Assembly (NCBI RefSeq): GCF_029227855.1
Contig: NZ_CP074356.1
Source of the DNA: Escherichia coli
GTDB taxonomy: Bacteria > Pseudomonadota > Gammaproteobacteria > Enterobacterales > Enterobacteriaceae
Strand: one strand, 5' to 3'
Length of the DNA stretch: 64,000 nt
Position 1 is the stretch's first letter. Each line of letters opens with the position of its first letter. The translations under genes and the position numbers were made by a program. The notes beneath the pieces are model-generated. The model searched no databases and was not told where the DNA came from. It worked only from the letters and a program-made list of their open reading frames with translations. Below are positions 34,825-39,660 of this stretch, piece after piece.

Positions 34825-36030
34825 ATGTTTCATCTCGATACTTTAGCAACGCTTGTTGCCGCAACGCTGACGTTGCTGCTCGGGCGTAAGTTGGTCCATT
34901 CCGTCTCCTTTTTGAAGAAATACACCATACCGGAACCTGTTGCGGGTGGTTTGTTGGTGGCGCTGGCGCTACTAGTACTGAAAAAAAGCATGGGCTGGGA
35001 AGTCAACTTTGATATGTCCCTGCGCGATCCGTTAATGCTGGCTTTCTTCGCCACCATTGGCCTGAACGCCAACATTGCCAGTTTGCGTGCCGGTGGGCGT
35101 GTGGTTGGCATCTTCTTGATTGTGGTTGTTGGTCTGTTGGTGATGCAAAATGCCATTGGCATTGGTATGGCTAGCCTGTTAGGGCTTGATCCGCTGATGG
35201 GGCTGTTGGCCGGTTCTATTACGCTTTCCGGCGGTCACGGTACGGGCGCTGCGTGGAGTAAATTGTTCATTGAACGTTATGGCTTCACCAATGCGACGGA
35301 AGTGGCGATGGCCTGTGCAACGTTCGGTCTGGTGCTGGGCGGCTTGATTGGCGGTCCGGTGGCGCGCTATCTGGTGAAACACTCCACCACGCCGAACGGT
35401 ATTCCGGATGACCAGGAAGTCCCGACGGCGTTTGAAAAGCCGGATGTGGGCCGCATGATCACCTCGCTGGTGCTGATTGAAACTATCGCGCTGATTGCTA
35501 TCTGCCTGACGGTGGGGAAAATTGTTGCGCAACTTTTGGCTGGCACTGCTTTTGAACTGCCGACCTTCGTCTGTGTACTGTTTGTTGGCGTGATTCTGAG
35601 CAACGGTCTGTCAATGATGGGCTTTTACCGCGTCTTTGAGCGTGCGGTATCCGTGCTGGGTAACGTAAGCCTGTCGTTGTTCCTGGCGATGGCGCTGATG
35701 GGGCTGAAACTGTGGGAGCTGGCTTCGCTGGCGCTGCCGATGCTGGCGATTCTGGTGGTACAGACCATCTTCATGGCGTTGTATGCCATCTTCGTTACCT
35801 GGCGCATGATGGGCAAAAACTACGATGCGGCAGTGCTGGCTGCGGGTCACTGTGGTTTTGGCCTCGGTGCAACGCCAACGGCAATCGCCAACATGCAGGC
35901 GATCACTGAACGCTTTGGCCCGTCGCACATGGCGTTTTTGGTGGTGCCGATGGTCGGTGCGTTCTTTATCGATATCGTCAATGCGCTGGTGATTAAGCTG
36001 TATTTAATGTTGCCGATTTTTGCCGGTTAA
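34825..36030 (+). CDS. gltS: Sodium/glutamate symporter
   Basis: 401-aa polytopic membrane protein recognised as GltS. Confidence 0.92.
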   Translation: MFHLDTLATLVAATLTLLLGRKLVHSVSFLKKYTIPEPVAGGLLVALALLVLKKSMGWEVNFDMSLRDPLMLAFFATIGLNANIASLRAGGRVVGIFLIVVVGLLVMQNAIGIGMASLLGLDPLMGLLAGSITLSGGHGTGAAWSKLFIERYGFTNATEVAMACATFGLVLGGLIGGPVARYLVKHSTTPNGIPDDQEVPTAFEKPDVGRMITSLVLIETIALIAICLTVGKIVAQLLAGTAFELPTFVCVLFVGVILSNGLSMMGFYRVFERAVSVLGNVSLSLFLAMALMGLKLWELASLALPMLAILVVQTIFMALYAIFVTWRMMGKNYDAAVLAAGHCGFGLGATPTAIANMQAITERFGPSHMAFLVVPMVGAFFIDIVNALVIKLYLMLPIFAG

Positions 36031-36032
36031 AA

Positions 36033-36899
36033 ATGAAAAAGCGTCGGAAGGAACCGGAAACGCTACGTGAACACTGTCGCCATATTTTTGGTGATGAGCC
36101 GCCAGTGCTCTGTGTATGGGAAACGGAATTTGATTACGCAGATGCCGAACTCAAGGCGCTGGCGGCTAAAGAGTGGCAGCAGATCAGCGAATGGGATTTG
36201 AGTGCTTACTATGTACTCAATCTCGTTTATAACGAACCGATGCAAATAGAGTTGTTTCGCTATCTGTTTCCGCTCTGCCTGGCGCAATGGCATGAAACCG
36301 TTTTAGCTGGCGGTTATGGTGATCACTTCGAAGAATCCTTAATGAAGGCATTGTGTCGGCCCTATCTCTGGCAGGAGATGATGAATGCTTCCCAACGCCA
36401 GCAGGTACGGCAATTTTTACTGGACACCGCGTTGCAGCGTATGGATAACGAGCGTGGTTTCAATAACGTTCTTTGCTGGCTGGCGGTGTTCAATACTCTG
36501 GGTGGGGCCGCGCCGTTAATTCGTTCTCTCTGGTCGCGCTGGTGGGCGCTGGATACGCCAGGAAAAGCGGTGTGTGCTATTCAGTATGCCGCGCATCTAA
36601 TTTATCCCATAGAAGCCAATCCGTTATGGTCGCAAGAATGGATAGGCTGGGGGCATCCATTAGGCCATAAAGATGGCTGGTCCTCTGATAATCGCGCTTT
36701 TCTTCGCCAAATGTTAACACCTGAAATGATTGTGGCTGGCGTACAGGCAGCGGCTGAAATTCTGCGTGGTGAACCGGAAGGCGCAATGGCGGCGCGAATT
36801 GCACAGGATGCGTATGAGGCAATGGATATCCTCACTATCCAGATTGAAGATTTACTGCGTGACTTGTCTTGTGATGAGTCTGGTCATGCGTTGGAGTAA
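36033..36899 (+). CDS. Hypothetical protein (288 aa), not recalled in K-12 at this position
   Basis: ATG 2 nt after the gltS stop; protein-like composition; 3' end overlaps the recG 3' end by 16 bp. Confidence 0.5.
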   Translation: MKKRRKEPETLREHCRHIFGDEPPVLCVWETEFDYADAELKALAAKEWQQISEWDLSAYYVLNLVYNEPMQIELFRYLFPLCLAQWHETVLAGGYGDHFEESLMKALCRPYLWQEMMNASQRQQVRQFLLDTALQRMDNERGFNNVLCWLAVFNTLGGAAPLIRSLWSRWWALDTPGKAVCAIQYAAHLIYPIEANPLWSQEWIGWGHPLGHKDGWSSDNRAFLRQMLTPEMIVAGVQAAAEILRGEPEGAMAARIAQDAYEAMDILTIQIEDLLRDLSCDESGHALE

Positions 36900-38965
36900 C
36901 GTTCCGTCTCCGGCATCCAGCGTTCTATCAGGGCTTTTGCTTGTTGTGGGTAACGTTCGTGAATATGTCGCGCCAGGCGCTGAACTTCCGGGATCATCGC
37001 CTGATCGCGCAGTAAATCCGCCACTTTAAACTCAGCATTACCCGTCTGACGCGTACCTAACAGTTCACCCGGTCCGCGAATCTCTAAGTCTTTCTGTGCA
37101 ATCACAAAACCGTCGTTGCTGTCGCGCAGCACTTGCAGCCGAATTTGCGCGGTTTTGGAGAGCGGCGTTTTGTAGAGCAGCACGCAGTGAGAAGCCACCG
37201 CACCACGACCTACACGCCCGCGAAGCTGGTGTAACTGCGCCAGACCCAGACGCTCCGGGTTTTCGATAATCATCAGACTGGCGTTAGGCACATCAACGCC
37301 GACTTCAATAACGGTTGTGGCAACCAGCAGGTGTAGCTCACCTTGTTTAAACGACGCCATCACCGCCTGTTTCTCGGCAGGTTTCATCCGCCCGTGTACC
37401 AGGCCAACGTTCAACTCTGGTAGCGCCAGTTTCAACTCTTCCCAGGTAGCTTCCGCCGCCTGCGCTTCCAGTAATTCCGACTCTTCAATCAACGTACAAA
37501 CCCAGTACGCCTGACGACCTTCAGTCATGCAGGCGTGGCGCACGCGGTCAATGATGTCGGTACGGCGGGTATCAGGAATAGCGACCGTAGTCACTGGCGT
37601 GCGGCCTGGCGGCAGCTCATCTATCACCGAGGTATCGAGATCGGCATACGCAGTCATTGCCAGCGTGCGGGGGATCGGCGTGGCGGTCATGATCAACTGA
37701 TGCGGATGGAAGCCCTGCTGCTGGCCTTTCTCCCACAATGCCAGACGCTGATGTACGCCAAAACGATGCTGTTCGTCGATAATCACCAGCGCCAGGCCGT
37801 TAAACTGCACCTGTTCCTGGAAGATGGCGTGTGTACCGACAATCATCTGCACCTGACCGCTGGCGATGGCTTCCTGCTGTGCCAGCCGTGCTTTACCTTT
37901 CTGCTTACCGGCGAGCCAGCCCACTTCGATACCGAGCGGAGCAAACCAGTTACGGAAGTTATTGGCGTGCTGCTCGGCGAGTAATTCGGTTGGTGCCATC
38001 AGCGCCACCTGTTTGCCGTGCGCAATTGCACGCAGCGCGGCGAGGGCGGCGACCAGTGTTTTACCGGAGCCTACATCGCCCTGCACCAGACGCATCATCG
38101 GCACATCCAGCGCCATATCGCGCTCGATCTCCGCCACCACGCGTGCCTGAGCGCCCGTTGGCTTAAACGGTAAGGCAGCAAGAAGTTTATTTTTCAGCGC
38201 GTCATTGTCGCTAAGCGGCTGGGCATGAAAACGTTGCGCTCCGGCACGTAAAGCTAACATGCTGAGGTTGTGCGCCAGTAGTTCTTCCAGAATCAGACGA
38301 CGTTGCGCCGGATGATGCCCGGTTTCCAGATCGCTAAGCTGTAGCGTCGGTGGCGGGCGATGCAGGGTGCGCAAGGCTTCCGGTAGCGTCATCATTCCTT
38401 GTGACAGTTCCGGCGGCAGGAGTTCTTCAATGGCGCAGGTGTCGAGCAGATCCAGCGCCTGGTCGGTTAATTTACGCAGCGTGGCCTGCTTTACGCCTTC
38501 GGTTGTTGGATAAACCGGCGTGAGCGTTTCCTGCAACTCTGGCGTACTGAGATCGCCCTGCACGCGGTATTCCGGGTGGATCATCTCTGCGCCATATTTG
38601 CCGCGCTTTGCTTCGCCATAGGCCAGTACACGGCGGCCCGTCGCCAGGCTATTTTTCATTGCCGCGTTGAAGTTGAAAAAGCGCATGGTGAGAATGCCGG
38701 AACCGTCGCTGATCTGGCAGGTCATCATCCGCCGACCGCCGAAGGAGATATTGCAGTTCAGCACTTCGCCTTCCACCGTGGCATAAACGCCCGGCAGTAG
38801 TTCTCCGATGGGGTAGAGATGGGTGCGATCTTCGTAGCGCAGGGGAAGGTGTAACAGTAGATCCTGCACGGTATGCAGGTTGATTTTCGCCAGTTTGTTA
38901 CTAAGTGCTGCGCCAACGCCCGTTAGGGAACTGAGTGGGACAGCATCTAACAGGCGACCTTTCAT
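36884..38965 (-). CDS. recG: ATP-dependent DNA helicase RecG
   Basis: 693 aa from MKGRLL; SF2 helicase motifs GDVGSGKT and DEQHRFG. Confidence 0.93.
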   Translation of the reverse strand: MKGRLLDAVPLSSLTGVGAALSNKLAKINLHTVQDLLLHLPLRYEDRTHLYPIGELLPGVYATVEGEVLNCNISFGGRRMMTCQISDGSGILTMRFFNFNAAMKNSLATGRRVLAYGEAKRGKYGAEMIHPEYRVQGDLSTPELQETLTPVYPTTEGVKQATLRKLTDQALDLLDTCAIEELLPPELSQGMMTLPEALRTLHRPPPTLQLSDLETGHHPAQRRLILEELLAHNLSMLALRAGAQRFHAQPLSDNDALKNKLLAALPFKPTGAQARVVAEIERDMALDVPMMRLVQGDVGSGKTLVAALAALRAIAHGKQVALMAPTELLAEQHANNFRNWFAPLGIEVGWLAGKQKGKARLAQQEAIASGQVQMIVGTHAIFQEQVQFNGLALVIIDEQHRFGVHQRLALWEKGQQQGFHPHQLIMTATPIPRTLAMTAYADLDTSVIDELPPGRTPVTTVAIPDTRRTDIIDRVRHACMTEGRQAYWVCTLIEESELLEAQAAEATWEELKLALPELNVGLVHGRMKPAEKQAVMASFKQGELHLLVATTVIEVGVDVPNASLMIIENPERLGLAQLHQLRGRVGRGAVASHCVLLYKTPLSKTAQIRLQVLRDSNDGFVIAQKDLEIRGPGELLGTRQTGNAEFKVADLLRDQAMIPEVQRLARHIHERYPQQAKALIERWMPETERYSNA

Positions 38966-38970
38966 GGCAC

Positions 38971-39660
38971 TTACCCTGCAGCCTGCATAGTAGCCCACCA
39001 GTCGGCATCAGCTTCGATCTCGCCTTGCTGATTGACGTGGGGATAAGGCAGGCCTTTGCGTTTTGCGACTTTCGCCAGCACCGGATAGCCGCCTTCAAAC
39101 AACAGGCGTTGTTGCTCTGCTTCCGGCAACATGCTGTTTTCACGCAGGTACATGCCTGCATTTTGCCGCTGACGCTGGGCTTCGTAAAGAATGAGGGCTG
39201 AGGCAACGGAAACATTCAGCGACTGCACCATGCCGATCATCGGAATGATGATGTCCTGATCCGCCAGGGCCAATGCTTCCTGCGTGATGCCCGTTTTCTC
39301 CTGTCCCATCAAAATGCAGGTCGGGCGGGTGTAATCAATTTCGCGGAAATCGACAGCGTTATCAGAAAGATGGGTTGCCAGAATCTGCATGCCCTGGCCT
39401 TTGAGATGAGCGACGGCATCGACAATGGTGCGGTGTGTTTTCACCTGCACCCAGCTGTTACTACCCGCAGCTGCCGAAGCCATGGTGCGCATCCGGCTGC
39501 CTGGCCAGACAGCATGAACTTCATGTACGCCAACGGCATCTGCGGTACGAATAATCGCAGAAACGTTATGAGGTTTGTGGACCTGCTCCATGCAGACGGT
39601 CAGATCAGGCTGCCGCCTGGCGAGCATTTCGCAGATGCGTGCATAACGTGTTGGATTCAT
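38971..39660 (-). CDS. trmH: tRNA (Gm18) 2'-O-methyltransferase
   Basis: 229-aa SpoU-family methyltransferase. Confidence 0.92.
   Translation of the reverse strand: MNPTRYARICEMLARRQPDLTVCMEQVHKPHNVSAIIRTADAVGVHEVHAVWPGSRMRTMASAAAGSNSWVQVKTHRTIVDAVAHLKGQGMQILATHLSDNAVDFREIDYTRPTCILMGQEKTGITQEALALADQDIIIPMIGMVQSLNVSVASALILYEAQRQRQNAGMYLRENSMLPEAEQQRLLFEGGYPVLAKVAKRKGLPYPHVNQQGEIEADADWWATMQAAG

Follow-up and report, generated by a model that had tools for sequence, protein, structure and literature searches.

The stretch of Escherichia coli DNA analyzed here (64,000 nucleotides of contig NZ_CP074356.1, assembly GCF_029227855.1; hereafter the window) carries, between the sodium/glutamate symporter gene gltS and the convergently transcribed recG, an open reading frame (ORF) of 288 codons whose ATG begins 2 nt past the gltS stop codon and whose 3' end overlaps that of recG by 16 bp. 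This arrangement, first pointed out in a reading made from the letters without database searches (the sequence-only reading), agrees with the ORF list, with the sequence itself, and with RefSeq genomes containing identical DNA, in which the same three coding sequences are annotated with the same overlap. The ORF is a genuine protein-coding gene, being conserved, syntenic, monophyletic, and polymorphic. Full-length homologues are found in other genera at E = 1e-131 to 1e-50, with identities of 69-71% for the Salmonella homologues and 37% for one from a Zoogloeaceae metagenome-assembled genome; the ratio of the proportions of nonsynonymous and synonymous differences (pN/pS) is low, and the G+C content at the three codon positions follows a coding-type pattern (GC1 > GC3 > GC2), all of which upholds the earlier impression that the ORF is protein-like. 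It is of note that the gene is already annotated and unstudied, and is not a new gene call; it is known as WP_000747329.1 (hypothetical protein) in RefSeq, as ECs_4528 in O157:H7 Sakai, and as Ybl159 in UniProt/UniRef for the E. coli B lineage (UniRef J7QXD5_ECOLX), E. coli B REL606 having an identical copy. Our analyses make it likely that ybl159 is a long-resident chromosomal gene that has been repeatedly deleted and that K-12 and ~65% of sequenced E. coli carry deletion alleles; translation may be coupled to gltS, and the product may be a solenoid-like binding protein.

The sequence-only reading stated that K-12 has no gene in this interval, and in MG1655 gltS and recG are indeed neighbours, with a 168-bp spacer containing repetitive extragenic palindromic (REP) sequence and no gene between them. 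The gene is also strain-variable, as had been supposed: when the gltS-recG interval was compared across 5,426 complete E. coli genomes, 1,911-1,913 (~35%) carried the ORF, in single copy and on the chromosome in every case. Most copies (1,872) are >=99% identical to that of the window; alleles at 95-99% identity occur in 44 E. coli records and one at 80-90% in a single record. When the 1,917 E. coli hits were sampled at even spacing, all 39 full-length rows were ungapped, 38 of them spanning the whole 867 bp and one (H69) ending a base earlier. The K-12-type 168-bp spacer is present in 1,873 of the 5,426 genomes (35%), and a 33-bp spacer allele consisting of a terminator hairpin accounts, by subtraction, for ~1,640 (~30%). 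On the gltS strand, both ORF-less alleles contain a stable G+C-rich hairpin (-18 to -21 kcal/mol, z -3 to -5.5) and, directly after it, UUUU; in K-12 a REP-like insert divides the hairpin. For the ORF allele, neither a significant structure nor a terminator-like site is predicted where the ORF meets recG. The K-12 spacer (L001 1032-1199) looks as if ~135 bp had been inserted into the hairpin of the 33-bp allele, so that one hairpin remains at each end; the inserted sequence has two degenerate, inverted REP-like units.

Orthologues convergent to the 3' end of recG, as in the window, occur in at least five other enterobacterial lineages. Their amino acid identities to the window protein are 70% in Salmonella, 63-66% in two Superficieibacter species, 64% in metagenome P0010, 55% in Intestinirhabdus alba, 49% in Enterobacter sp. 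kpr-6, and 48% in a further enterobacterium. The linkage to recG persists though the left neighbour switches among gltS, xanP, and glpX, and the 16-bp overlap with recG recurs in Intestinirhabdus (L012) and in metagenome P0010 (L043). In a neighbour-joining tree of 26 family members, all the copies linked to recG fall into a single clade with 100/100 bootstrap support; inside it the E. coli copy groups with Salmonella, and three metagenome sequences of unknown context are nested there as well. In Superficieibacter electus (L005 5080-5463), a 127-aa minus-strand gene call without a Pfam match, either real or spurious, lies between the orthologue and recG and overlaps the 3' end of the former.

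The encoded protein is acidic (33 kDa, isoelectric point 4.9, 13 Trp) and has no hydrophobic or transmembrane segment. AlphaFold2, run with 16 homologues, predicts 14 helices with a predicted local distance difference test (pLDDT) score of 88 and a predicted template modelling (TM) score of 0.87; the confident all-alpha model appears to be a HEAT/ARM-like solenoid. A profile search of 1.84 billion representatives returned 445 clusters (50% identity, E <= 1e-3), nearly all of them single-domain proteins of 280-310 aa, and the window protein belongs to this family by full-length similarity, by its single domain of ~280-310 aa, and by Foldseek TM-scores of 0.82-0.96 to family members in AFDB. It also has the family signature EP[ML]QP[ED]LFRYLFPxCLxxW, which reads EPMQIELFRYLFPLCLAQW in the window, together with W170, G177, W216, and N220. 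The near-invariant residues of the family (F33, Y60, Q71, P80, L83, W86, W170, G177, W216, and N220) appear to be aromatic, amide, or structural positions and not a catalytic set. The homology search that the sequence-only reading had called for thus yielded homologues and a family, and no known domain family. Pfam gave no match for the ORF protein or for any of 83 diverse family members, its HEAT, Arm, and similar repeat profiles included; NCBIfam, PHROGs, and PDB sequence profiles gave none for the family, nor did PADLOC for 13 family members at E <= 1, in keeping with the unknown function noted from the sequence. A fold search of AFDB50 retrieved family members only, and one of viral structures came back empty. 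The AFDB labels 'DUF1822 family protein' and 'dipeptidase (fragment)', borne by one hit each, were treated as isolated annotations. A second, word-indexed protein search with a profile of 83 sequences added almost nothing and revealed no fused domains. The product of window positions 36033-36896 is placed, in the protein collection clustered at 90% identity, in a cluster of 9,280 members represented by GltS, probably through fused gltS-ORF gene calls that bridge the two, and the exact E. coli cluster was missing from the first homology search because the product is clustered under GltS. An all-against-all comparison of unrelated family loci found no shared neighbour gene, and two further metagenome contexts differed again. 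Because the family has neither catalytic-type conserved residues nor a conserved gene partner, a stand-alone, non-enzymatic role in binding or as an adaptor may be proposed.

The sequence-only reading, from the arrangement in K-12, had taken ybl159 for a strain-variable insertion, that is, for a gene acquired horizontally into a K-12-like gltS-recG junction. Such an event would account for its absence from K-12 and ~65% of E. coli genomes and from Escherichia strain CUPF09, for the patchy occurrence of the family across Proteobacteria and Planctomycetes, for a third-position G+C content (GC3, 0.50) and a codon bias below those of the flanks, and for a synonymous divergence (pS) from Salmonella above that of the flanks, but we regard it as improbable. 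The gene occupies the identical recG-side position in at least six enterobacterial lineages, and the copies are monophyletic. Within E. coli it diverges alongside gltS, since in the same strain pairs (two divergent carriers compared with the window) pS is 0.058 in the ORF and 0.05-0.07 in gltS. No direct or inverted repeats were found in the flanks, no integrase or tRNA at the locus, and no copy among phage sequences, and the junction-proximal flanks of carriers and non-carriers show no foreign-level divergence; the G+C content of the ORF (50.3%) equals the genome average. The plasmid collection likewise held no genuine copy, its only matches being mislabelled chromosome: the three 'plasmid' records with the ORF (H101-H103; NZ_OL790696.1, 4.8 Mb; CP061233.1, 1.0 Mb; NZ_MG557853.1, 40.6 kb) all look chromosomal, and in the last recG adjoins the ORF. 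The locus thus has none of the repeats, mobility genes, odd composition, or mobile copies of an inserted island. It is because of the shared recG-side place and monophyly of the copies, the co-divergence with gltS, and the missing mobile-element signature that we favour deletion, and the insertion claim was given up; the gene would be old in Enterobacteriaceae at the recG 3' end, and loss is the better explanation for K-12 not having it. Several observations weigh against this reading. The supposed 5' remnant of the ORF in K-12 (ATGAAGCGGCGGTAG vs ATGAAAAAGCGTCGGAAG) is weakly above chance, its score being equalled by 545 of 20,000 random 26-mers (~0.027, position-anchored), and the 33-bp allele shows no remnant in the same position-anchored test, which was not significant; as a candidate, a remnant in the ORF-less alleles was set aside as weak, unanchored local alignment also being not significant. 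The K-12-type ORF-less allele is present in CUPF09, which is ~9% divergent, and the absence must therefore be old as well. Between E. coli and Salmonella the pS of the ORF is saturated at 0.74, compared with 0.46-0.59 in the flanks, a value that would fit low codon bias and equally a deeper or foreign origin. A scan of genome contigs, limited by its search patterns so that cross-species counts of presence and absence are unreliable, found the family in only 9 species and missed the Salmonella and E. coli representatives. The binding or adaptor role is itself deduced from the predicted fold and the missing catalytic residues, and in the literature searched neither ybl159 nor ECs4528 is mentioned and no functional study was found.

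A gene lost from two thirds of E. coli genomes might also be a decaying, dispensable relic, still open in the window while constraint relaxes and heading for loss. Amino acid change relative to Salmonella runs at 5-8 times the rate of the neighbours (pN 0.19 in the ORF vs 0.02-0.04 in the flanks), the within-species pN/pS is 0.2-0.25 compared with 0 for gltS, codon bias is weak, and truncated protein clusters exist. We take STM3745 of Salmonella Typhimurium LT2 to be the probable Salmonella orthologue, from a match of size and name and from the gene order of LT2. STM3745, annotated as a putative 'cytoplasmic protein' of 852 bp, has a premature stop in the Typhimurium DT99/DT9/D23580 lineage (PMC3853940). 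Even so, decay seems unlikely to us, given that pN/pS is about 0.2-0.25 or lower, far under 1, in all comparisons with unsaturated pS, that all 39 full-length E. coli copies sampled were ungapped and all eight Salmonella loci returned were intact, and that length and motifs of the family are kept across phyla; errors of assembly or frameshifts may account for many of the truncated entries in UniProt. With a ratio of nonsynonymous to synonymous substitution rates (dN/dS) of ~0.06 between E. coli and Salmonella and of 0.22-0.25 within E. coli, the gene is, by these estimates, evolving quickly yet under purifying constraint. A recent sweep specific to the ORF, considered because the O111, O157, and B copies are 100% identical, was rejected, since xanP and gltS are just as invariant, K-12 included. 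In Salmonella enterica the orthologue comes in two deeply separated allele classes (L004 6001-6849 vs L035 4709-5560), with differences at 102 of 849 nt (12%), pS 0.318 and pN/pS 0.20 in the ORF and pS of 0.025-0.13 (~1-3.6% different) in the flanks; the divergence is sharply limited to the ORF, and both alleles are intact. These classes and the three common E. coli alleles leave some room for balancing selection or genetic conflict, and nothing else speaks for it. That ybl159 is a conflict gene (for instance an orphan immunity protein, an anti-toxin, or a defence factor acting as a single gene) whose polymorphism is kept by balancing or diversifying selection is highly unlikely: the PADLOC and PHROGs searches were empty, the loci show no conserved toxin, partner, or island of the kind an immunity protein would have, their neighbours being housekeeping or unrelated genes, phages and plasmids do not carry it, a pN/pS of 0.2 is purifying overall and not diversifying, the sole structural match to a CdiI protein is weak (root-mean-square deviation 10 Å over 81 residues), and RefSeq allele frequencies are skewed by sampling. 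A further proposal, to which we give a small chance, is that the Ybl159/STM3745 family is a new stand-alone conflict-related or regulatory module at a locus under long-term balancing selection; it would explain the three about equally frequent E. coli alleles, the deep ORF-limited classes in Salmonella, and the lasting attachment to the recG 3' end, where loss of the terminator would set gltS and spoT-recG transcription in antisense conflict.

Expression of the gene in the window would be coupled to that of gltS. Co-transcription with gltS is plausible from the anatomy of the gltS-ORF junction, where the gap is 2 nt, no Shine-Dalgarno sequence precedes the ORF, and neither promoter nor terminator signals exceed chance; the stop-start spacing suggests translational coupling. 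The junctions of other orthologues linked to gltS are just as tight (TAAGATG in Salmonella, TAATG in the metagenome enterobacterium L007), whereas orthologues without an upstream gltS have a strong AGGGAGG Shine-Dalgarno sequence, a contrast that fits termination-reinitiation coupling. The weak codon bias of the ORF (effective number of codons 53 vs 42-46 in the neighbours; GC3 0.50 vs 0.60-0.65) suggests low expression. As no hairpin separates the two, transcription of the gltS-ORF unit probably runs into the rpoZ-spoT-trmH-recG unit and vice versa. The features of the locus are collected in Table 1.

Table 1. Features of the gltS-ybl159-recG locus, numbered from the first letter of the window
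Feature	Position	Strand	Basis
gltS, sodium/glutamate symporter, 401 aa, upstream cistron	34825..36030	+	ORF list; RefSeq annotation of identical DNA
Stop-start junction TAA-AA-ATG without upstream Shine-Dalgarno sequence; putative translational coupling site	36028..36035	+	sequence
Ybl159 / ECs_4528 gene, 867 bp, 288 aa, ATG start	36033..36899	+	ORF list, RefSeq, homologues
Convergent overlap, 16 bp, between the end of the ORF and the final codons of recG, its stop (at 36884) included	36884..36899	both strands	ORF list, sequence, RefSeq
recG, 693 aa, last gene of the convergent rpoZ-spoT-trmH-recG unit	36884..38965	-	ORF list, RefSeq

Among the flanking genes, gltS orthologues match Pfam Glt_symporter. 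The last codons of recG read TCC AAC GCA TGA in the window and TCG AAT GCG TAA in K-12, leaving the amino acids unchanged. The mechanical recG ORF runs as far as a GTG at 38998, which makes it 704 aa long and brings it into overlap with the trmH end, and the RefSeq start gives 693 aa. In an Rfam scan, the ORF locus matched no RNA family. Within recG, a full-length match to Ysr141 (Yersinia small RNA 141) lies antisense at 37891-38145 (+), with E = 6.5e-41 and a score below the gathering score (146 vs 196 bits); it may be a mere echo of the conservation of the recG coding sequence. Variation in recG itself is unusual: among E. coli strains nearly identical in xanP, gltS, and the ORF, recG is polymorphic and mosaic (recG and trmH, window 36900-39660), strains differing by 1-3.5% in recG vs 0-0.9% in its neighbours, with breakpoints at differing sites inside the gene. 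REL606, Sakai, and K-12 share one trmH sequence, from which the trmH of the window departs at 10 of 690 sites, and the four other typical E. coli strains compared are a similar 10-24 sites from the window. In Salmonella, too, recG varies more than the genes beside it.

Together, these data are consistent with a scenario in which the gene stood at the 3' end of recG in an ancestor of many Enterobacteriaceae and would later have evolved fast under purifying selection while being repeatedly deleted. In the deletion alleles, the place of the gene is taken by a terminator hairpin rich in G+C, which in some has a REP-like insert. In the window, gltS and the ORF would form a bicistron with the ORF as its distal member, and low-level translation of the ORF would come about by termination-reinitiation coupling to gltS. 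Its product is predicted to be soluble, acidic, and all-alpha, probably a HEAT/ARM-like solenoid, and may act as a dispensable stand-alone binder or adaptor for a protein or a small ligand. The practical value of correcting the reading from an insertion to an ancestral gene lost in K-12 is modest. The wider interest lies in a conserved, confidently foldable family outside all domain databases that is present in BL21, REL606, enterohaemorrhagic E. coli O157 and O111, and Salmonella. Genes absent from K-12 tend to be ignored, yet with the tools available for E. coli B and LT2 this one could readily be studied. Should selection and not drift lie behind the allele pattern, the locus could also show how convergent operons tolerate the loss of a shared terminator.

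With respect to known systems, the gene of the window and Ybl159/ECs_4528/WP_000747329.1 do not differ in anything, as they encode the same protein in the same place between gltS and recG with the same 16-bp overlap. The Salmonella enterica orthologue (283 aa, 852 bp with the stop codon) also lies between gltS and recG, but it stops 2-3 nt short of recG, whereas the window ORF overlaps it. AlkD-type DNA glycosylases with HEAT-like repeats were considered because recG is adjacent; like the ORF protein, these enzymes are built of all-alpha repeats, are of similar size, and have conserved aromatic residues. At the level of fold, the model of the ORF protein matches only generic solenoids in the PDB, and its nearest comparison is with alpha-solenoids of the HEAT/ARM type, such as TOG domains, CID domains, and importin-like repeats.
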